Positions 4,765 through 26,405 of a stretch of 32,000 nt of DNA are shown piece by piece. The DNA comes from an uncultured Balneolaceae bacterium (GTDB lineage Bacteria > Bacteroidota > Rhodothermia > Balneolales > Balneolaceae): contig CAZFAJ010000016.1 in the NCBI GenBank assembly GCA_964517005.1, forward strand, positions 1-32,000. The letters run 5' to 3'. The notes below the pieces were generated by a model. The model ran no database searches. It saw only the letters and a list, made by a program, of their open reading frames with translations, and had not been told where the DNA came from. Position 1 is the first letter of the stretch. The number at the start of each line of letters is the position of its first letter. Made by a program: the position numbers and the translations under genes.

Positions 4765-5817
4765 ATGGTAGACCAGATGTTAATGGATACTGAACAGGAT
4801 GATTTTATTGAAGATCCGAAAGATCTGACAGGTGTACAAAAAGCTGCAGTTTTTTTGATCTCTTTTGGTGTTGAAAAAGCATCAAAGGTGCTTAAAGAAT
4901 TGCGGGATCCTGAAGTTGAAAAGATCACAAAAGCTATTTCGGAAATGAAGAATATAAGTCCGCCCGTAGTGGATTCGGTAATGGATGAGTTCTACGATCT
5001 TATGTCAGAGCGGAAGTTCCTGGTTGAAGGCGGACATGATATTGCCAAAAATTTACTTGAACAGACAAAAGGTAAAAATCAGGCGGATGAAATGTTTCGT
5101 AAATTTGAAGCCGAAAGAGGGGAAGACGCGTTTAGCATCATTCAGAATAGTGAAGTTGAAAATATTGTTCACTTTTTAAAAAATGAACATCCGCAGATTG
5201 CAGCCGTAATACTGGCACATCTTAAATTGAATAAATCGGCAGAGATTTTAACCCATCTTCCGGACGATTTTCGTGGAGATGTTGCCCTTCGAATGGCACG
5301 CCTGGGGAAAATTTCCAACGAGGTAGTCGAGGAATTGTCGCACGTTATTAAAGATCAGCTGAGCAGTGAGTATACAGATCGCAACAACATTCAAAAAGGT
5401 GCTTCAGCTGTAGCCGGAATTTTGAATGAATCGGATATTTCTACTGAGCGCAGTGTGCTGGAATCGATTGAAGCCATTGATCCCGATCTTGCAAAAGAGA
5501 TTAAGGATCAGATGTTCCTCTTTGAAGATATCCTTGAGCTGGATGACAGAACCATGCAAACCATCGTATCAAAGCTTGATAAGCAGGATATGGTTACGGG
5601 TCTGAAGGGAGTTGATGAAAAAATTAAGGAAAAATTCCTTTCTAATATGTCAACCCGGGCCAAAGACATTCTTGTGGATGATCTTGAAGCCATTGGCCCC
5701 GTACATGTTAAGAAAGTAGAAGAGGCACAACAGAACATTGTGAAATCAATTAAGCAGATGGATCAGGAAGGAAAGATATCTATCCGAAATAAAGATACCG
5801 ATCAAATAATTGAGTAA
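4765..5817 (+). CDS. fliG: Flagellar motor switch protein FliG
   Basis: 'GVQKAAVFLISFG', 'EHPQIAAVILAHL', 'MFLFEDILELDDRTMQTIV' and 'MSTRAKDILVDDLEAIGPV' are all FliG hallmarks. Confidence 0.96.
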   Translation: MVDQMLMDTEQDDFIEDPKDLTGVQKAAVFLISFGVEKASKVLKELRDPEVEKITKAISEMKNISPPVVDSVMDEFYDLMSERKFLVEGGHDIAKNLLEQTKGKNQADEMFRKFEAERGEDAFSIIQNSEVENIVHFLKNEHPQIAAVILAHLKLNKSAEILTHLPDDFRGDVALRMARLGKISNEVVEELSHVIKDQLSSEYTDRNNIQKGASAVAGILNESDISTERSVLESIEAIDPDLAKEIKDQMFLFEDILELDDRTMQTIVSKLDKQDMVTGLKGVDEKIKEKFLSNMSTRAKDILVDDLEAIGPVHVKKVEEAQQNIVKSIKQMDQEGKISIRNKDTDQIIE

Positions 5818-7886: not shown

Positions 7887-8330
7887 ATGTTTAAATTTAA
7901 ACTACAATCAGTTCTGAATGTCCGTCTCTATAATGAGAAAACGGAAAAACAGAATCTTTCGCAGCTTTTTACAGAACGAAATAATCTGATTAGCGAGATG
8001 GAACTGAAAGCCCGGCAAATCAAGGGATTTTCCGAAAACCAGGCCGGTGCGCATGAAAGTAAAAACGTCCGGGAGAAATTGGTCCAGGAATTTTTACTGT
8101 CACAATTAAAGGAAATATGGGAACTGGAAAAAACACTAAGAATAAAGAATAGTCAGATCGAACAACAGCGGGAAAAGTTAATTGAAGCGAATAAGGAGGT
8201 TCAGATTCTTGAAAAACTTAAACAAAAAGCATTAGTAGAGCACCTCAGAGAAGAAGAACGAAAGGATCAGAATTTTCAGAATGAAGTGGCAACACAAATG
8301 TTTTATAAACCACAGGAAGAATGGATTTAA
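7887..8330 (+). CDS. fliJ: Flagellar export chaperone/stalk protein FliJ
   Basis: 147 aa, all coiled-coil. The N-terminus 'FKFKLQSVLNVR' is typical of FliJ, and the gene sits directly after fliI. Confidence 0.85.
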   Translation: MFKFKLQSVLNVRLYNEKTEKQNLSQLFTERNNLISEMELKARQIKGFSENQAGAHESKNVREKLVQEFLLSQLKEIWELEKTLRIKNSQIEQQREKLIEANKEVQILEKLKQKALVEHLREEERKDQNFQNEVATQMFYKPQEEWI

Positions 8331-8908
8331 AAAAGATTGGTATATCTGTAGGGATTCTTGCAGGATCATTTTTGGTGATTCTTATCATTATGTATCTGCT
8401 GTTTCCGGTATTGAATCCGGGGGAGGCCGAAAAGCAGGAATTGGCAATGGCTGAAGAGCAATCCGAAAATCAACTGAATCGAATCAGTGAAACAGTGAAT
8501 AGTGAAAACGAATACTCAGCAGATGTTGCACCTGGCATAACAGAAGATGTTAACAACGATTCAATAAGCCTGGCGGAACCTGATGTGCTTTCTCAGAATG
8601 ATATGAGTATTGATGAAAAGAGGTATATCGAACAAATTGATTCACTGAAGCAGGTGGTGGAAAATTTAAAAAAGGAACATGAACTGGAGTTGCAGGAAGT
8701 CACAAATGTTCAATTCGAAGAACAAGTGCAGGAAACAACCAAAACCCTTCTCAGTATGGATGAAGATGCACTGGCGCCAATCGTAAATGAATTGGAAGAA
8801 CCGATTCTTATAAAATTATATAACACGGCAACCGGCATGCAAAAGCGAAAATTACTTCAGTCATTAGAACCTGAAAAGGCATCCAGAATTTTAAAATTAG
8901 TTATGTGA
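8321..8908 (+). CDS. Flagellar-operon membrane protein with C-terminal MgtE_N-like domain (YlxF/FlbB/MotE-like)
   Basis: N-terminal TM 'ISVGILAGSFLVILIIMYLLF', then a coiled coil. The C-terminus 'MDEDALAPIVNELEEPILIKLYNTATGMQKRKLLQSLEPEKASRIL' resembles the MgtE_N repeat. The fliJ-X-fliK position is the same as B. subtilis ylxF. Confidence 0.6.
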   Translation: MDLKKIGISVGILAGSFLVILIIMYLLFPVLNPGEAEKQELAMAEEQSENQLNRISETVNSENEYSADVAPGITEDVNNDSISLAEPDVLSQNDMSIDEKRYIEQIDSLKQVVENLKKEHELELQEVTNVQFEEQVQETTKTLLSMDEDALAPIVNELEEPILIKLYNTATGMQKRKLLQSLEPEKASRILKLVM

Positions 8909-10572
8909 TGATTCAGTTATTTACGCAACCCAAATCAATACAAGTACTGTCAGCCTCTGAAAATTCTCAGGGAGTAAAAATAAATTCCCATGATCATCAG
9001 AGTGAAGGCGGCTTTGGCAAGCAGCTATCTGATGTTTTGCAGAAATTTATGGGATACGGTGAGCAGCAAAAGAACCATGAGTTTTCAGAAGAAAAAAGCG
9101 GAACTCTTGTAACTTCTGAGGATTCTTCTGTCGTTCATACTGCACTCCATTCAAAAGAGTCGGAACAAGTTCAAATCAGGCTTATATCTGAGAAAAAGTT
9201 CATTTTGGAAGAGCATCATGCAAAAAACGGGACTTCTAATAAATTCAGCTCAGCCGGCATAACAAAGTCAATCACAGATGCTTCTTCTGAAAGTGTAAAC
9301 CCAAAAAAAGTTTTAAAGAATTTTGATCATAAAAGTACTGCCCCCGGCATAGTGGCTCAAAATGTTCAGAACGATTCAGTAAATTTGGTTGCGGAAAAAT
9401 CCATGAAGGGACAGGTGAGTGAAGTAAAATCGAACGGGGCCAAACAAGACGTGCAAATGGAAAAAACCGGGATCACTCTGAAGGAGGTTTTTGCCGGGAA
9501 TGTTCAAAACTCAGTGAGCAATGCTGAAGCTGAAAATTCCCCTAAAATCAGTGAAGGTACTATTAAAAATGCAGTGGTGACGGATGAAGGAAACAAAAAT
9601 AAAAATATTTTTAAACCCGGCCGTTCATTTCCGGGATTGAACTTTCAAAACAACCAAAGTTCTGAAAAAACGGGAGTCATAAATTCACAGGTAGCTGATC
9701 ATTCAGGAATAGAAAACAGGCAGGGAAATAATCCCGCTGCAAATAAACCTGTCAGAGAATTTATTAACAGCCAGGCCGCCGGAATCTCTGTATCAAAGGA
9801 GCCGGTACCTGCTGCTGAAAAAAATACAAAAACGTCAGATCGCTTAAATCATTTTAAAATCGATGGCGACGGGGAGAGGGATTTACTGAAATCCACAGAA
9901 CGGATGGATTTTCAGCGCACGGAAAAAGCTGCTTATAACAAAACCCCTTCCGGGCAAAAAATTAATACTTTCAGCAGTTTTGATCAGGTTGTGCCACAAA
10001 CAGACAGCAAGGAACCTGCATCTAAAGCAGCTGGAGAATTATTCGGCACGGATTTAAATGAAAAGAAGCTCAGCAATACCCGTGAACCGGTAGCTATAAG
10101 GCCGGAACAATCTGTTTTGTTTCAACAAGCTGAGCGAAGGAATTTATCAGTAAGGCTTGCAAAAATTGTGAAACAGGAACTTCAATCCGGAAAAATGCAG
10201 GGTCAGGGCTGGAAAAAACATCAATTCACCCTGGATGACGGAACAAAGGTGCAGCTGTCTCTCCGGAAAACGGAGGGTGTGATACAGCTTCAATTGGGGT
10301 CGGTAAACAGTGAGCTGAATAAACTGATTCAGCAGCATGCACAAGAAATCCGGCAACACCTTGAAGAGCAGATGAATGCGGAAGTAAACCTTCAATTTCA
10401 GGAGGCAACACCCGAAAATGGAAATGGTCTTTTTTCTGATAATAATTCCGGCAGCGAACCCTCTGACGGAAAAAATCAGGAAAAGATGACCGGTAACGCC
10501 GACAAGCAACTGCCTCATGAAGGCAGAAGAACTCGGTTATTTGGATTTAACAGTAATGAATGGACAGCCTAA
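8905..10572 (+). CDS. fliK: Flagellar hook-length control protein FliK
   Basis: 555 aa with a long, polar, low-complexity N-terminal/central region. The C-terminal Flg_hook-like domain is 'FTLDDGTKVQLSLRKTEGVIQLQLGSVNSELNKLIQQHAQEIRQHLEE'. The gene lies before flgD. The start is GTG at 8905 or ATG at 8908. Confidence 0.8.
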   Translation: MMIQLFTQPKSIQVLSASENSQGVKINSHDHQSEGGFGKQLSDVLQKFMGYGEQQKNHEFSEEKSGTLVTSEDSSVVHTALHSKESEQVQIRLISEKKFILEEHHAKNGTSNKFSSAGITKSITDASSESVNPKKVLKNFDHKSTAPGIVAQNVQNDSVNLVAEKSMKGQVSEVKSNGAKQDVQMEKTGITLKEVFAGNVQNSVSNAEAENSPKISEGTIKNAVVTDEGNKNKNIFKPGRSFPGLNFQNNQSSEKTGVINSQVADHSGIENRQGNNPAANKPVREFINSQAAGISVSKEPVPAAEKNTKTSDRLNHFKIDGDGERDLLKSTERMDFQRTEKAAYNKTPSGQKINTFSSFDQVVPQTDSKEPASKAAGELFGTDLNEKKLSNTREPVAIRPEQSVLFQQAERRNLSVRLAKIVKQELQSGKMQGQGWKKHQFTLDDGTKVQLSLRKTEGVIQLQLGSVNSELNKLIQQHAQEIRQHLEEQMNAEVNLQFQEATPENGNGLFSDNNSGSEPSDGKNQEKMTGNADKQLPHEGRRTRLFGFNSNEWTA

Positions 10573-19918: not shown

Positions 19919-20338
19919 TTAAATTAAAGGCTTCAGCAAATTGATCAGCTTTCGGTTGCGATCGAGCCTGTATACATCGAAATCGCTATCCAGTGAGATA
20001 ATGTATTTGATCTGCAGTGTCTCAGCAGCCTGTAAGAGAGAAGCGTGAGCTAAATCAGCCGGAAGATCTTCATATTTTTTTATAAGGGCATGTATTCTGG
20101 CAAGTTCCCACTGCTCAGTATTGTGGAGTTCTATTCCGCCTTCATAAACCCAGGATAGAAAATCGAGGCGAACCTGTGAATTGAAATCAAGCATGTAAGA
20201 TGCTTCAGTTACGACAGGCCATGTAGTAATTAAACGGCCTTCGTACTTTTCCATGAAACGATAAACGATTCGGTGATATTGATCACTCCGGTCAAAGAGA
20301 GCAATAACCGGACCGGCATCAATCAGAGCGCTTTTCAC
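19919..20338 (-). CDS. vapC: PIN-domain ribonuclease toxin (VapC family)
   Basis: 139 aa. Acidic PIN residues occur in 'LIDAGPVIALF', 'VVTEASYML' and 'ISLDSDFDVYRL'. The GTG start overlaps the upstream RHH gene by 20 nt. Confidence 0.85.
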   Translation of the reverse strand: MKSALIDAGPVIALFDRSDQYHRIVYRFMEKYEGRLITTWPVVTEASYMLDFNSQVRLDFLSWVYEGGIELHNTEQWELARIHALIKKYEDLPADLAHASLLQAAETLQIKYIISLDSDFDVYRLDRNRKLINLLKPLI

Positions 20339-20567
20339 GGATTTTTGATTTAATTTCTGATTTGTAGGATACAGAACGGTTATGATCGCCGCTGCTGTGC
20401 TTTCCGAAATACTTTTTTCCGGTTATGAAGGGTTGATTGTATGTTTTTTCTTTTGCCATATACTCTACGAGCGCTTCTTTGATGATTTCGGAACGGGATA
20501 TATCTTTTTGATTTGACAAAACTTCCAGTTCATGTTCAATTTCTTTGGGTAGCCTTACCGATCTCAT
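20319..20567 (-). CDS. vapB: Ribbon-helix-helix (CopG/RHH) antitoxin paired with the PIN toxin
   Basis: 'MRSVRLPKEIEHELEVLSNQKDISRSEIIKEALVEYMAKE' has an RHH beta-strand plus two helices. The gene is 82 aa, lies immediately upstream of the PIN gene and overlaps it. Confidence 0.8.
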   Translation of the reverse strand: MRSVRLPKEIEHELEVLSNQKDISRSEIIKEALVEYMAKEKTYNQPFITGKKYFGKHSSGDHNRSVSYKSEIKSKIREKRSD

Positions 20568-20767: not shown

Positions 20768-21529
20768 CTAATATTGGGAAATTTTGTTTTGTAAGGTAGA
20801 ACGAAGTTGTAGCAGTAATTTACCAACAATTTGAGATATACGGGCTTCAGTCAGACCCATAAGAAGTGCAATCTCTTTTAAGGTAAGGTCTTCATAATAG
20901 TAAAGGGCAAGGATAAGCCTTTCTCTCTCCTTGAATTGATTGATAGCCATTTTAATTTGCTTTGACATGCTCTCTTTCTCAAGATTTGAATCTGGTTGTT
21001 CAGAGGCGCTGTTTTCCAACTGATCTAAAACTGGTTGGTCAGATTCATGAGGATGAACGGTCTGATCAAGCGATAAAACAGCTCTTTGCTGAACATTACT
21101 TAATAAGCTTTGGTAGTTCTCAAGGCTCATCTCCATCTTTTCGGCTACCTCTTCATCATCCGGCTGGCGTCCCAGTTCCTGCTGAAGCTGATCAATAACT
21201 TCCTGTGCTTTTCCAAACTGTGTTCTGTCGGTTCGCGGAAGCTGATCGATGGATCTGAGGTAATCAATAATATTTCCGCGAATCCGGTAATAGGCAAACG
21301 TGTTAAATTGAATCTCTTTAGAACAGTCGTAATTTTCAAGTGCCTGAAGCAAACCCATGATTCCGGCGCTTTCAATATCTTCATATTGTGATAATGCAGT
21401 TTCCGGCCTGCGAACCTTTCCTATGATGCTCTTTACCAGTGGCATTGCTTCTGTAATAATGGCATTCCGTAATGCGATTGTCGGTTCTTCACAGTATGAA
21501 TCGACCAATTCCTGAAGAGATAAATTCAT
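20768..21529 (-). CDS. fliA: Flagellar sigma factor FliA (sigma28 / SigD family)
   Basis: Region 2 is 'FNTFAYYRIRGNIIDYLR'. The region 4.2 HTH is 'YYEDLTLKEIALLMGLTEARISQIVGK'. The protein is 253 aa and sits downstream of flhA/flhF. Confidence 0.93.
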   Translation of the reverse strand: MNLSLQELVDSYCEEPTIALRNAIITEAMPLVKSIIGKVRRPETALSQYEDIESAGIMGLLQALENYDCSKEIQFNTFAYYRIRGNIIDYLRSIDQLPRTDRTQFGKAQEVIDQLQQELGRQPDDEEVAEKMEMSLENYQSLLSNVQQRAVLSLDQTVHPHESDQPVLDQLENSASEQPDSNLEKESMSKQIKMAINQFKERERLILALYYYEDLTLKEIALLMGLTEARISQIVGKLLLQLRSTLQNKISQY

Positions 21530-21598: not shown

Positions 21599-21808
21599 TC
21601 AGGTTTGATGTGTGGTTGCAGAGTGATCCGATTTTGTAGTAGAGGTTTCTTTAATGATATCAATCAGGAAGACAGATATTCTTGTTGTTATCACCAATAC
21701 AGAAAATATGATTACACTTTTCAACATTGATTGTTCAATACCTGATCCTGAAAATGTTAAAAAGGAAAACAAAAGCAGGGAAACGATTGCGTAAATTCGG
21801 ACTAACAT
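21599..21808 (-). CDS. Hypothetical small membrane protein (69 aa, two predicted TM helices)
   Basis: 'VRIYAIVSLLLFSFLTFSG' and 'SVIIFSVLVITTRISVFLIDII'. The ORF is co-oriented between the FlhF-like gene and fliA, in the slot normally held by flhG. I recognised no homology. Confidence 0.4.
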   Translation of the reverse strand: MLVRIYAIVSLLLFSFLTFSGSGIEQSMLKSVIIFSVLVITTRISVFLIDIIKETSTTKSDHSATTHQT

Positions 21809-21851: not shown

Positions 21852-23225
21852 CTAAAAATCATCACTTTTTAAATTTTTCAGACTCCACTCAACAATTTTT
21901 TCAGAAGTTGTATTATTGTAAGAGTCTGTGTGAAGAAAACCGGTTTTAGTCTTGAGATAATATTTGTATATGTAAAAATTACCGGGACTGTCAACACAGT
22001 AGTCCACATTTGAAAATGAGATGTAATCCGGCTTAAAATAGTGATTCGCCGGCAGCTGATGAATTACCTGCTCGGGATCAAACAGGCTATGAGTTACAAA
22101 ATGGTGTTCAGGTTCTAAAGGACCGTCAAATAGCAAGCTATATTCATTCCATTTTTGAGCTACTCCATCAAGTTCTAAAGGCAGAGCCTTTGTTTTTATG
22201 AAAAAAGTGGAGCCCTTTCCTTCACTGTTAAGTATCTGCCTCCATTCTGCATTGGTTGAAATAGTGTAACCCGGAATTTCATCCGATAAATTAACGCTCT
22301 TCAGCAATGAGGGTTGATCTGAAATAAGTACGGGCCGGAAGGTATCGGCCAAAAAATTCCGATTGTGACTTATCAGGAAGTTGATGACATTATCAATTCC
22401 GGAGCCTGACAAACCTGAAAAGAGGTAAACGCCGTTCGCAGAGTCCGGATTTTTTGGCTGTAACTCATTTGTAAGAATTTTTTTTATCTGATTCAGCTGA
22501 ATTTCCGGTTGTCCGCTGGGAAGCATCGTATTGCTGAACCAATGATTTAAAAGATCAGGATGAAATTTTTTAGATAGCAGATGGCGGTAAACAGGATTCC
22601 CCGAAATATCTGGCATTAATTCATTTCCTATCCTTCTTGTAATACGCTCAAGCTGCTGAAGCCGCTGCTGAATATGCTCAAAATGAAAGTTGACGGACGG
22701 CGTATCATTAACATCTAAATAATGATTTCTCTTCGCCTCTTCGGGAAGGGAATCCCGGTAAATTTTATTCTCTTTATCAGGAGATTTTTCCGCTTTTCTC
22801 TTTTTTTGAGGTGGATAGGTATTATAACTATTGCTGCTTTTTTCAAAATAAACACCAGGGGTTTTCTCTTTTAACGTGCTTTTAACCCGAGAGTCTGGGT
22901 TGTCCCGATCACTTACCGGGGAGTTATCTGTTCCTTTATGAGATTCACTGTTATTCTCCATAAATTTATTTATGGATCTGTTTCCTTTGTCAAATAGTTC
23001 TTCAAACTGGCCCAAAAGAGGCTTCAGGAGATGAACCGGTTTTTTTGTTTTGGCATCTGAGCGATATCTGTCAATTTCAGATTCGTCTATAGCAACAGTT
23101 ATTGAAGCAGGTATACCGGGCCTTGATTCGGCAGACTCAAGGATAACGAACTTATTGTTAAAGAGAAGTGAGGCCTTATCACGAGCCTCTGAGAGATTTA
23201 CTCCTTTTACTTTTCTGATGTTCAT
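21852..23225 (-). CDS. flhF: FlhF-like flagellar placement protein with degenerate GTPase motifs
   Basis: The N-terminus 'MNIRKVKGVNLSEARDKASLLFNNKFVILES...ITVAIDE' resembles FlhF ('MKIKKF..EA......G..AVIL.S...V.V.AA.D'). A basic, disordered middle region follows, like the FlhF B-domain. The NG-like C-terminal half has 'VYLFSGLSGSGIDNVINFL' where FlhF has 'I.L.GPTGVGKTTT.AKLA'. The ATG overlaps the flhA stop (ATGA). Confidence 0.65.
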   Translation of the reverse strand: MNIRKVKGVNLSEARDKASLLFNNKFVILESAESRPGIPASITVAIDESEIDRYRSDAKTKKPVHLLKPLLGQFEELFDKGNRSINKFMENNSESHKGTDNSPVSDRDNPDSRVKSTLKEKTPGVYFEKSSNSYNTYPPQKKRKAEKSPDKENKIYRDSLPEEAKRNHYLDVNDTPSVNFHFEHIQQRLQQLERITRRIGNELMPDISGNPVYRHLLSKKFHPDLLNHWFSNTMLPSGQPEIQLNQIKKILTNELQPKNPDSANGVYLFSGLSGSGIDNVINFLISHNRNFLADTFRPVLISDQPSLLKSVNLSDEIPGYTISTNAEWRQILNSEGKGSTFFIKTKALPLELDGVAQKWNEYSLLFDGPLEPEHHFVTHSLFDPEQVIHQLPANHYFKPDYISFSNVDYCVDSPGNFYIYKYYLKTKTGFLHTDSYNNTTSEKIVEWSLKNLKSDDF

Positions 23226-25330
23226 AATTCAACGGGTTCCTGAAGTTGAGGTTCTGATTTCTGGAGTTCAATTTTATCAAATTTTTTAATCTGGGTATCA
23301 ATTGTTAAATCGTTGTAAGATAGCACTACCACATCGGGAATTACCGATACAAGGAAATCGTAAATAGCAGGCCTTAGTACCGGCGAAGTCAGAATGATTG
23401 GCTTGTGTCCATCTGCAATCATATTTTCAAATATTTTATTACAGGCCACATAAAATTTCTCAACAGTATCGGGAGTGAATCCGAGTGTGCTTGGGTGAAG
23501 GTTTCCTTGCTGTGCCTGGGTAATAAGATGAGACTCAAGAGCGCTGTCGAATACGGAGACGGTTACACTCCCTGTTGGATCACTGTACATTTTTGTAATT
23601 TTATCTGCCAGGCTGTTTCGCACATATTCAGTGAGCACTTCAGGATTCTGAGTTTTTCCATGATAATCTGCAATCGTTTCAAGAATAGTGTTGAGATCGC
23701 GAATGGGCACTTGTTCCTTTAAAAGGCGTTTTAATACTTTTTGAATGTTACCGTAGCTCATCTTTTCAGGGATCAACTCTTCAACAACCGCCGGTGATGA
23801 TTCCTTTAAATTTTCAATAAGTTTTTTCACCATTTGCCGGTCAAGTAATTTGTATGCGTTACGTTTAATGATCTCAATCAGATGAGTAGTGATTACAGCT
23901 CCGGCCTCAATAATGGAGAGGCCGAATTTTTCAGCCTCGGCTCTGTTTTTGGAGTTTACCCAAACGGCATCCATACCAAATGCAGGATCCTTGGTTTTTA
24001 CTCCCGGAAGCTCAAGATCGAGATCAGCAGGTAACAGCACCATATGATATTCCGGCAGAAGATCTCCTTTTCCCTGCAGTATGCCACGCATTTTAATTAC
24101 GTATTCATTAGCGTCCAGCTGGATGTTATCCCGGATACGAATGGGGGGGACAAGAATCCCAAGCTCAATTGCAAGTTGCTTGCGCAAAGACGACATCCGG
24201 TCAAGTAGGTCTCCACCCTGTTCAGGATCTACAAGCGGGATTACACTATAGCCGATTTCCAGTTCGAGTGTATCCATCAGCAGGTAATCCTCAATTTTAT
24301 CATCCGGTGAATTCAGCTGTTCTTTTTCCTCGTTAGCCAGAGCCAGGTCCTGTTCATCCTCCTTGCTTTTTTTGTTAGCCTGATAAGCTAAAAATCCTGC
24401 AAGAAGCCAAAAGGGCAAAGCCGGCATTCCCGGAAGTGCACCCATTATGAAAATAAATGCAGCTGAGAGAGCAATCACTTTAGGACTGCCAAATAACTGG
24501 CCGGTGATCTCTGTACTTAAATTGCCTTCAGATGCAGCCCTGGTAACAATAATACCGGCTGCCGTCGAAATCAAAAGGGAGGGGATCTGGCTTACAAGGC
24601 CATCGCCGATTGTGAGAAGGGTATAAGTAGCGGCTGCATCACCGATATCCATACCTTGCTGCATAGTTCCAATTACAAGGCCGCCGATAATATTGATAAA
24701 GGTAATTAACAGCCCTGCAATCACATCACCGCGAACAAATTTACTGGCTCCGTCCATGGCGCCGTAGAAATCACTTTCCCTGGATATTTCTTCTCGTCTT
24801 TTTTTTGCCTCCTCATCTGACAATAATCCGGCGTTGAGGTCTGCATCAATAGCCATCTGCTTGCCGGGCATTGCATCAAGGGTAAAACGGGCTGAAACTT
24901 CTGCAATCCGTGAAGCTCCCTTGGTGATTACAACAAAGTTAATGATTACCAAAACAGCAAAAATAATTACCCCGATAACGTAATTGCCCTGCACAACAAA
25001 ACTGCCAAAAGCCGCAATCAGGTTTCCTGCAAATCCTTCACTGAGAATAAGCCTGGTTGAAGCAACATTAAGGGATAACCGGAATAGTGTCAGTATCAAA
25101 AGCATGCCGGGAAACACAGCAAACTCCAGAGGTTTATTGGTGTAAAAAGCTACCAGCAGAACAATCACGGACAGGGAAACACTCATTGCCAGAAAAAAAT
25201 CGAGCAGGCCTGGCGGAATAGGCAGCACCATAATCATCAGGATCATGAGAATGCTCGACGAAACCAGAATATCCGACCGGCTCATTAGAAAAGCTATCCA
25301 TCCCTGTTTGTTTGGTTTTACTTCTTTCAT
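23222..25330 (-). CDS. flhA: Flagellar export apparatus protein FlhA
   Basis: 702 aa. The N-terminal polytopic domain contains 'RFTLDAMPGKQMAIDADLNAGL', 'FYGAMDGASKFVRGD' and 'IGDGLVSQIPSLLISTAAGIIVTR'. A large cytoplasmic C-domain follows. Confidence 0.97.
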   Translation of the reverse strand: MKEVKPNKQGWIAFLMSRSDILVSSSILMILMIMVLPIPPGLLDFFLAMSVSLSVIVLLVAFYTNKPLEFAVFPGMLLILTLFRLSLNVASTRLILSEGFAGNLIAAFGSFVVQGNYVIGVIIFAVLVIINFVVITKGASRIAEVSARFTLDAMPGKQMAIDADLNAGLLSDEEAKKRREEISRESDFYGAMDGASKFVRGDVIAGLLITFINIIGGLVIGTMQQGMDIGDAAATYTLLTIGDGLVSQIPSLLISTAAGIIVTRAASEGNLSTEITGQLFGSPKVIALSAAFIFIMGALPGMPALPFWLLAGFLAYQANKKSKEDEQDLALANEEKEQLNSPDDKIEDYLLMDTLELEIGYSVIPLVDPEQGGDLLDRMSSLRKQLAIELGILVPPIRIRDNIQLDANEYVIKMRGILQGKGDLLPEYHMVLLPADLDLELPGVKTKDPAFGMDAVWVNSKNRAEAEKFGLSIIEAGAVITTHLIEIIKRNAYKLLDRQMVKKLIENLKESSPAVVEELIPEKMSYGNIQKVLKRLLKEQVPIRDLNTILETIADYHGKTQNPEVLTEYVRNSLADKITKMYSDPTGSVTVSVFDSALESHLITQAQQGNLHPSTLGFTPDTVEKFYVACNKIFENMIADGHKPIILTSPVLRPAIYDFLVSVIPDVVVLSYNDLTIDTQIKKFDKIELQKSEPQLQEPVEL

Positions 25331-25331
25331 G

Positions 25332-26405
25332 CTAATTAATATTCTTTTGTTTTAATTTGTAAACATATGCAAGGATCTCTGCAACAATCTGGAAGTAATC
25401 TTCCGGAACCGTTTCATCTTCTCGGGTTGATGCGTAAAGTGCCCTGGCCACAGGAGGGTTTTCAATAATCGGAATGTCAAACTCTGCTGCATGTGAACGT
25501 ATTTTCAAGGCCCTTTTCCGCATACCTTTAGCCTTAACAACTGGCGCGCTGTTATTTTCAGGATCATACTGAAGAGCAACTGCATAGTGTGTTGGATTGG
25601 TGATTACCACATCAGATGACATTACTGCATGATCCAGCCGCTTTTGCTGAGAAAAACTGAGCGCAGCCTGCCGGCGCTTGTTTTTCATATGCGGATCTCC
25701 TTCCATCTGCTTGTGTTCGTCCCGCACTTCCTGTTTCGTCATTCGGAGTTCTTTCTTGTGTTGAAAACGCGTATACATCGCATCCATGATGGACAGAATA
25801 ACTAGTGCTGTCAGAATTCGTGTCATAAGCAGTAAAATGAGCCGACCGGCTTCCGCGAGGGTTACACTCATAGGCATTACAAGCATGGTGATAAAAAGTT
25901 CAAGCTCATTGCTGAGTGTGATAAAGATGATTGTTCCGATAATAAATATTTTGCTTAGACCTTTAACAAGCTCTGCAATTCCACGCATCGAAAACACCTT
26001 TTTAAAACCTTTCATCGGGTCGATCCGGTTTGGTTTGGGCTCAATGGCTTTAGGTGCAATTACAACCCCGGTCTGTAAGAGGTTAGCAAGAAGCGAAACC
26101 ACAAGCAGAGCGAGTAGTAATGGACTAATTACTTTAAATCCAAGTACTAACGTGGTTTCAAGAATTTGTAACGCCTGTTCGCTGTTGCTGATGGGCTGAT
26201 CAAGATTAATAAAAATTTGCCGGAATAATGATTGAAACTGGTTATAAATCCATCCTCCGGAATAGAGAATAACCATTACCGATATCAACATCAGAAGTAC
26301 GGATGATACCTCTTGGCTTTTAGGTACATTCCCCTCTTCACGAGCTTTTTCAAGCCGCAGTGCGGTGGGATCTTCAGTTTTATCTTGTTTATCCTGTTCA
26401 GGCAT
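25332..26405 (-). CDS. flhB: Flagellar export switch protein FlhB
   Basis: 'DKTEDPTALRLEKAREEGNVPKSQE' at the N-terminus. 'RMTKQEVRDEHKQMEGDPHMK'. The autocleavage site is 'NPTH' in 'VVITNPTHYAVAL'. Confidence 0.96.
   Translation of the reverse strand: MPEQDKQDKTEDPTALRLEKAREEGNVPKSQEVSSVLLMLISVMVILYSGGWIYNQFQSLFRQIFINLDQPISNSEQALQILETTLVLGFKVISPLLLALLVVSLLANLLQTGVVIAPKAIEPKPNRIDPMKGFKKVFSMRGIAELVKGLSKIFIIGTIIFITLSNELELFITMLVMPMSVTLAEAGRLILLLMTRILTALVILSIMDAMYTRFQHKKELRMTKQEVRDEHKQMEGDPHMKNKRRQAALSFSQQKRLDHAVMSSDVVITNPTHYAVALQYDPENNSAPVVKAKGMRKRALKIRSHAAEFDIPIIENPPVARALYASTREDETVPEDYFQIVAEILAYVYKLKQKNIN

Follow-up and report, generated by a model that had tools for sequence, protein, structure and literature searches.

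An FlhF descendant without GTPase motifs in a Balneolaceae flagellar cluster, a putative nucleotide-independent scaffold

The place and number of flagella are generally held to be set by FlhF and FlhG, acting together as a conserved nucleotide switch. We analyzed a stretch of 32,000 nucleotides from an uncultured Balneolaceae bacterium (contig CAZFAJ010000016.1, positions 1 to 32,000, hereafter the window), which contains an almost complete flagellar gene cluster, and found that the gene lying directly downstream of flhA (21852-23225, minus strand) very probably encodes a descendant of FlhF, orthologous to it by descent and position, whose nucleotide-binding motifs have been lost. The loss is shared by the whole of a small clade of Balneolales relatives, is accompanied by the absence of flhG from the locus, and has not put an end to purifying selection on the protein. 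We consider it fairly probable that this FlhF descendant now acts as a nucleotide-independent scaffold that has kept a FliG-binding N-terminus.

The open reading frame (ORF) starts with ATG and codes for 457 amino acids plus a stop codon. As stated in the initial annotation, it directly follows flhA with an ATGA overlap. The two genes are translationally coupled, flhA lying at 23222-25330 (minus strand; PF00771, E-value 1e-260) and its stop codon being overlapped by the ATG (ttATGAac, in the context ...gaattATGAacatc...). This is the position expected of flhF, and the same placement is found in six further loci. The gene order flhB, flhA, FlhF-like gene, an ORF of about 70 amino acids, and fliA is common to the window and to loci L001, L003, L007, L008, and L009.

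Against curated families, the window protein gives a weak match to the FlhF model TIGR03499 (E-value 1e-6, residues 1-276 on profile positions 1-210), which is its only credible match in NCBIfam and reaches 29 bits for a cut-off of 174.15. We could not find any Pfam match, including PF00448, even at an E-value of 10, nor any for five members of its clade, and sequence searches of the PDB with clade profiles of 5 and 13 sequences returned noise only. When 1.84 billion cluster representatives were searched exhaustively with a profile, 37 relatives came to light; a word-indexed search with the 13-sequence profile gave at least 6 proteins. Group one, the clade of the window protein (n = 13), comprises P0001-P0012 plus P0042, a cluster member of P0009, and has degenerate P-loops (e.g. 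GLPGSDIH, FSSFSGTNIT, FSSLEGTDPL). Group two (P0013-P0039, with 26 P-loop-bearing proteins in the profile used for comparison with the clade) carries GxxGxGK[ST], scores above the gathering threshold of PF00448, and has TIGR03499 as its top NCBIfam match, while its profile finds B. subtilis FlhF (2px0) as the best PDB match (E-value 1.3e-25).

End to end, the profile of group one can be aligned with that of group two (hhalign probability 99.95, E-value 8e-38, 429 columns), and group-two sequences match the clade at E-values of 1e-14 to 1e-4 in the exhaustive search. The homology of the window protein to FlhF that emerges from these comparisons is transitive but strong. An unrelated P-loop-less protein placed after flhA by chance is ruled out by the full-length profile alignment together with the predicted fold described below. 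Scans of contigs for additional clade loci gave two in genome contigs and, in metagenomes, none at first and then one (L011); the alignment of the 13 sequences is too divergent for search patterns to be derived from it.

The protein can be divided into four parts, all coded on the minus strand: a module resembling the FliG-interaction domain (FID) of FlhF (residues 1-48, 23082-23225), a disordered and mildly basic linker (residues 49-177, 22695-23081), the helical N sub-domain of an NG module (residues 178-262, 22440-22694), and a G-like sub-domain without nucleotide-binding motifs (residues 263-457, 21855-22439). This division rests on conservation, on profile alignments, and on an AlphaFold (AF2) model built from an alignment of 39 sequences that includes the P-loop-bearing relatives, with a mean predicted local distance difference test score (pLDDT) of 74.7 and values of about 85-94 in the NG part.

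Concerning the N-terminal module, the TIGR03499 alignment begins at residue 1 and profile position 1, and residues 1-48 align to the N-terminus of the P-loop-bearing FlhF. It is modelled as a beta-alpha-beta-beta fold (pLDDT 94-97 over residues 1-40 and 86 over residues 41-50) and is the best conserved part of the protein, at 77-81% identity. Scanned alone, four of 12 clade N-termini match TIGR03499 (best E-value 4.1e-5); when the PDB was searched by sequence, first with this N-terminus by itself and then with a profile of 12 N-termini, no FlhF FID entry came up, and no PDB chain was matched. At the level of sequence and model, the protein has an N-terminal FID-like module followed by a disordered linker, as is typical of FlhF, and this module may bind FliG. 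The linker is predicted to be disordered over residues 55-65 and 92-175 (pLDDT below 50), has an isoelectric point of 9.15 (26 Lys and Arg for 22 Asp and Glu), and holds a conserved helix at residues 68-92 or thereabouts. It also includes the motif GVYFEKS (residues 124-130, 22836-22856, minus strand), whose pattern GV.F..S is conserved in the clade. The longer form GV.FE[KR]S is kept clade-wide despite the fast evolution of the linker, GV.FERS also occurs in part of the P-loop-bearing group, and it may act as a linear binding motif.

The N sub-domain consists of helices modelled over residues 177-254, aligns to the N domain of the P-loop-bearing FlhF, and lies within the span that Foldseek matches to the NG domains of FlhF and Ffh. 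The G-like sub-domain has an alternating beta-alpha topology (pLDDT about 85-94) and aligns to their G domain. The best PDB match of the model is FlhF of S. putrefaciens (8r9r, E-value 2.5e-8, TM-score 0.75), then B. subtilis FlhF (2px0, TM-score 0.69), then the NG domains of Ffh and FtsY. The predicted model has therefore an NG fold of the type known from the signal recognition particle (SRP), and the GTPase fold is retained. The initial annotation had proposed, partly by eye, a FlhF homologue with a FlhF-like N-terminus, a basic middle region, and an SRP-type NG domain in its C-terminal half, and had suggested comparisons with PF00448, the TIGR FlhF models, and the structure of B. subtilis FlhF. 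Those comparisons agree with it on each of these points, through the alignment to group two, the TIGR03499 match from residue 1, and the fold matches, although PF00448 gave no match and TIGR03499 a weak one, and the middle region turned out to be mildly basic.

Profile-profile alignment makes it possible to read the former motifs column by column. At G1, LFSGLSGSGIDNVI pairs with LFAGPSGAGKTQLI, so that LFSGLSGSGID stands opposite LFAGPSGAGKT; the P-loop is represented by GLSGSGID (residues 271-278, 22392-22415, minus strand) in place of GPSGAGKT, with Lys changed to Ile and Thr to Asp. The DxxR motif of G2 is absent. In the G3 region, TFFIKTKALPLE pairs with HVFIDTPSLSTE, and FFIKTKALP (residues 341-349, 22179-22205, minus strand) stands opposite VFIDTPSLS, the Asp being replaced by Lys in the window protein and by Ile, Glu, Val, Leu, or Ala in other clade members. 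At G4, DYISFSNVDYC pairs with DYVAITHLDEV, and FSNVDY (residues 404-409, 21999-22016, minus strand) takes the place of ITHLDE (TKIDE in B. subtilis), a change of THLDE to SNVDY. None of the intact motifs that define FlhF, i.e. G1 GxxGxGK[ST], G2 DxxR, G3 DTAGR, and G4 TKxD, is found in the window protein.

The initial annotation had named the same three degenerate motifs, with the P-loop at exactly these residues, and had described all G motifs as eroded, and both the aligned columns and the survey of orthologues that it had proposed bear this out: the P-loop Lys and Ser/Thr as well as the G3 Asp are absent from all 13 clade members, G4 is variable, and G274 is the sole residue of the P-loop that is invariant in the clade. 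Because the loss is common to 13 of 13 members, it cannot be attributed to chance or to sequencing error. A sequencing or frameshift artefact was also rejected on the finding of the same sequence on independent contigs from ENA, JGI, and NCBI. Moreover, the columns of the former motifs show no more conservation in the clade than does the rest of the domain (entropy 1.37-1.78 for G1, G3, and G4 against a domain mean of 1.68), whereas in the P-loop-bearing relatives they are the best conserved columns of the domain (0.56-0.98, the domain mean being 2.04).

The gene is not a pseudogene. We compared the window with loci L001 and L003 and obtained an overall ratio of non-synonymous to synonymous substitution rates (dN/dS) of 0.23-0.24, against 0.02-0.03 for flhA, flhB, and fliA at dS values of 0.45-0.96. 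Broken down by region, the ratio lies at 0.16-0.17 in residues 1-88, 0.38-0.48 in the linker, 0.15-0.17 in the N domain, and 0.19-0.22 in the G-like domain, with all folded parts falling within 0.15-0.27. Full-length ORFs persist where dS amounts to 0.7-1.2, and even where identity drops to about 20%. The protein is thus clearly constrained and under purifying selection, yet its rate of evolution is about ten times that of its neighbours (it is 60-69% identical where FlhA reaches 96-97%). Its least conserved folded part, at 51% identity, is the first half of the G-like domain, where G1 and G2 formerly lay. Seven residues of the former G domain (W328, W359, H374, H379, P392, F397, and G429) are kept in at least eight of nine full-length clade members and in 0-4% of group two, and may belong to a surface or pocket that evolved anew.

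According to a recent review, flhF and flhG are consistently encoded together (PMC12826062). However, we could not find flhG directly downstream of the window gene, nor any MinD/FlhG-type KGGxGK[ST] anywhere in the 32 kb, which also leads us to reject a relocation of flhG within the cluster; among the long ORFs of the window, only FliI has a true Walker A. Likewise, no MinD-type Walker A is present in clade loci L001, L003, L007, L008, L009, and L011, of which 9-32 kb per gene were covered. The spacers that flank the small ORF downstream of the window gene measure only 43 and 69 nucleotides, so no remnant of flhG is left there. In contrast, flhG is present in the group-two loci L006 (Gracilimonas sp. 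BCB1) and L010, where the order is flhB, flhA, flhF, flhG, a 77-aa ORF, and fliA. The FlhG proteins of Balneolales have 15-18 residues before their Walker A (e.g. L006 7529-8326, L010 6421-7212), and a DQAxxLR-like activator motif was found in none of 120 Balneolales FlhG orthologues (P0043-P0162). This motif stimulates GTP hydrolysis by FlhF in canonical systems (PMC12826062), and it seems from these sequences that canonical stimulation of FlhF by FlhG is absent across the order and not just in the clade of the window.

Group one is recovered as a bipartition in 100 of 100 bootstraps of a neighbour-joining tree computed on a divergent alignment, and FlhA identities are congruent with it (74-97% within group one, 65-69% to group-two loci), which points to a single loss of the motifs in one organismal lineage. 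The named relatives all belong to Balneolales, Balneolaceae, or Gracilimonas, and all genomes are metagenome-assembled genomes (MAGs) or metagenome contigs. Group-one members are annotated as 'hypothetical protein', a label also carried by several group-two FlhF because they score below the TIGR03499 cut-off.

In the group-two FlhF of Balneolales, G1 and the Asp residues of G3 and G4 are preserved, but these proteins are already non-canonical: they lack the G2 DxxR, their G3 reads D[TS]P[SP] for DTAGR and is without Gly and Arg, and their G4 reads TH[LM]DE for TKxDE, with His in place of Lys (the corresponding motifs of B. subtilis FlhF are GSTGAGKT, TTDTYRIAAVEQL, DTAGR, and TKIDET). Given these motifs and a FlhG without DQAxxLR, catalytic coupling looks to have been lost already across the order. 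The erosion was stepwise, flhG and probably nucleotide binding having been lost subsequently in the clade of the window. The state of these nearest P-loop-bearing relatives and the missing flhG go beyond what the initial annotation had noted.

How might such a protein work? In S. putrefaciens, FlhF begins with a structured FliG-interaction domain made of its first 44-60 residues (PMC11236974), a polar landmark serves as the docking site of the NG domain, and hydrolysis stimulated by FlhG lifts the block that FlhF imposes on the assembly of FliG with FliM/N (PMC11236974; PMC12826062). Mutants of FlhF affected in GTP binding have mislocalised or lost flagella in several species, and the requirement varies. 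As the FID-like N-terminus is the best conserved part of the window protein, we argue that the ancestral FliG-related function is retained. The N-terminus would bind FliG, by analogy with the S. putrefaciens system (PMC11236974), the presumed partner being the product of the fliG gene of the window (4765-5817, plus strand; FliG_N, FliG_M, and FliG_C at E-values of 1e-31 to 1e-36), and would seed assembly of the MS-ring and C-ring beside the export gate. For docking or localisation, the NG-shaped body would act as a passive module, with neither a GTP-driven dimer cycle nor an FlhG checkpoint, and release and number control would be achieved by other means. The protein would thereby keep a role in the placement or initiation of flagella, probably without binding any nucleotide.

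Several observations weigh against this proposal. The window protein itself keeps GxxGxG and the G4 Asp, so that a residual contact with phosphate or nucleotide is conceivable for this member alone. Its own 52-residue N-terminus, scanned by itself, does not reach an E-value of 0.01 against TIGR03499. An AF2 model built from five sequences only is poor (pLDDT 40), and the usable model borrows signal from the P-loop-bearing relatives. A gene for FlhG could lie elsewhere in the genome, as 9-32 kb per gene were seen and the genomes are MAGs. Finally, a study on Vibrio reports that mutations in the GTPase motif abolish polar localisation and flagellar formation (PMC6092412), and a study on P. aeruginosa describes FlhF-FliG binding as regulated by GTP (PMC12713375); a nucleotide-free FlhF would therefore need to have rewired these steps.

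We also weighed other explanations. It is very unlikely that the gene is a decaying relic, useless since the loss of flhG and with a frame kept open only by its coupling to flhA and by its place upstream of fliA. Its roughly tenfold faster evolution than its neighbours (dN/dS 0.24 against 0.02-0.03) and its lack of a Pfam match would fit decay, as would its conservation relative to FlhA divergence, which is lower than that of P-loop-bearing FlhF in a rate comparison based on a single pair of the latter. However, none of the folded segments has a dN/dS anywhere near 1, members at 20-25% identity still share length and architecture, the fold is confidently predicted, and the clade has the seven newly conserved residues given above. 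Some of these residues bear on another and unlikely reading, according to which a remodelled pocket still binds nucleotide or a different small ligand, the protein being then a non-hydrolysing pseudo-GTPase or the sensor of a new ligand. H374, H379, W328, and W359, together with H375, are conserved and line strands and loops near where the pocket used to be, and the invariant G274 as well as the GxxGxG and G4 Asp of the window protein would agree with binding. Yet the Lys and Ser/Thr that hold phosphate and Mg2+ are missing from 13 of 13 members and the G3 Asp from all, G4 is not conserved, and the former motif columns do not stand out from the domain average; such binding is possible for the window protein but unsupported as a family trait.

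The locus itself invites a further explanation, namely that the protein was repurposed away from placement and is now an assembly factor associated with FlhA or the export gate, or a regulator of FliA. The tight coupling to flhA through the ATGA overlap, the position immediately ahead of fliA and of a small, conserved membrane ORF in all loci, and the newly conserved part of its surface would all be compatible with such a role, which we nonetheless regard as quite unlikely since the best conserved part of the protein is the FID-like N-terminus that it has in common with bona fide FlhF. A more far-reaching possibility, which we hold to be somewhat unlikely, is that the clade replaced the whole FlhF-FlhG nucleotide switch with an FlhF-shaped placement factor that is ligand-free or differently liganded, the former GTP pocket and dimer face having been rebuilt into a new binding surface (W328, W359, H374, H379, and F397). 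This factor might work together with the small two-segment membrane protein encoded just downstream. If true, it would represent a mechanistically distinct way of siting and counting flagella.

That small protein is encoded by a conserved ORF of 69 amino acids with two hydrophobic segments (21599-21808, minus strand). All Balneolales loci examined, whether they have flhG or not, contain a homologue of 69-77 amino acids in this position. The dN/dS of the ORF is 0.04-0.12, and we could not find any family match for it in Pfam or NCBIfam. It is missed by some gene callers, which predict an ORF of 46 aa on the other strand instead (L004, L005). Its product might partner FlhF or FlhG at the membrane. 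The minus-strand block of the window consists of flhB (25332-26405; PF01312, matched on the identical gene in L004 and L005), flhA, the FlhF-like gene, the 69-aa ORF, and fliA, coding for sigma-28 (20768-21529; TIGR02479, E-value 8.8e-68). In locus L001, a masked run of N at about 10390-10500 (GTDB copy, contig CAYVBJ010000010.1) breaks the 3' end of fliA, and the apparent FliA of 274 amino acids in that locus is therefore an artefact.

The rest of the cluster lies on the plus strand, with flgB, flgC, fliE, fliF, fliG, fliH, fliI, fliJ, flgD, flgE, motA, motB, fliL, fliM, fliN, fliO, fliP, fliQ, and fliR, and a second block made of flgF, flgG, flgA, flgH, flgI, and flgN. Between fliJ and flgD, where fliK is expected, there are two plus-strand ORFs of 195 (8321-8908) and 555 amino acids (8905-10572), for which no Pfam match was found at E-values of 0.01 and 0.001, respectively. 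Between fliR and fliA, a two-gene cassette (19919-20567, minus strand) lies within the flagellar cluster, and codes for an 82-aa ribbon-helix-helix protein (PF01402, E-value 1.9e-5) overlapping a 139-aa partner without Pfam match. As this partner looks PIN-like by eye, the cassette is probably a toxin-antitoxin pair. Loci L001 and L004 also have it, whereas L003, L007, and L009 do not.

With respect to known systems, the window protein qualifies at the sequence level as a pseudoGTPase: the GTPase fold is predicted to be retained, the loss of the G motifs is conserved among orthologues, and purifying selection persists. PseudoGTPases such as degenerate septins and the N-terminal domain of AAGAB reportedly combine a GTPase fold and lost G motifs with selection as interaction modules. 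These are Ras-like or septin-type proteins (TRAFAC) and mostly eukaryotic, whereas the window protein has an SRP-type (SIMIBI) NG domain and belongs to a bacterial flagellar operon. The flagellar positioning factor TipF of Caulobacter is said to rest on an enzyme fold that is catalytically dead; it differs in its unrelated EAL fold, in that it still binds cyclic di-GMP, and in having no homology to the window protein. In the one literature collection searched, nothing relevant pairs FlhF with pseudo-GTPase, pseudoenzyme, or degenerate terms, and no SRP-family pseudoGTPase is described. Since the proteins of the clade bear the annotation 'hypothetical protein', such organisms would be counted as devoid of FlhF in genome surveys.

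Canonical FlhF, as known from B. subtilis (2px0/2px3) and S. putrefaciens (8r9r), occupies the same position after flhA and has the same architecture of N-terminus, linker, and NG domain. The window protein departs from this GTPase family in three features, namely its G motifs (GLSGSGID, no DxxR, IKTKA, and SNVDY, for GSTGAGKT, DTYR, DTAGR, and TKIDE in B. subtilis), its score below the curated cut-offs, and the absence of an FlhG partner, which canonical FlhF has and which is not encoded downstream of the window gene. Its closest detectable relatives are the P-loop-bearing FlhF of Balneolales (e.g. WP_349355645.1 of Gracilimonas sp. BCB1, L006 6001-7524, annotated as 'hypothetical protein'), which resemble it in operon order and in the small downstream ORF, but differ by their GxxGxGK[ST], G3 Asp, TH[LM]DE, match to PF00448, and adjacent flhG. 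These relatives represent an intermediate state, in which the P-loop is kept while the catalytic residues and the activator helix of FlhG are gone. A lineage whose flagellar cluster is otherwise intact and strongly constrained has thus lost both the nucleotide motifs of FlhF and the flhG of the locus, and offers a natural dissection of the functions of FlhF that require GTP from those that do not, as well as a concrete protein for models in which FlhF acts as a scaffold only.

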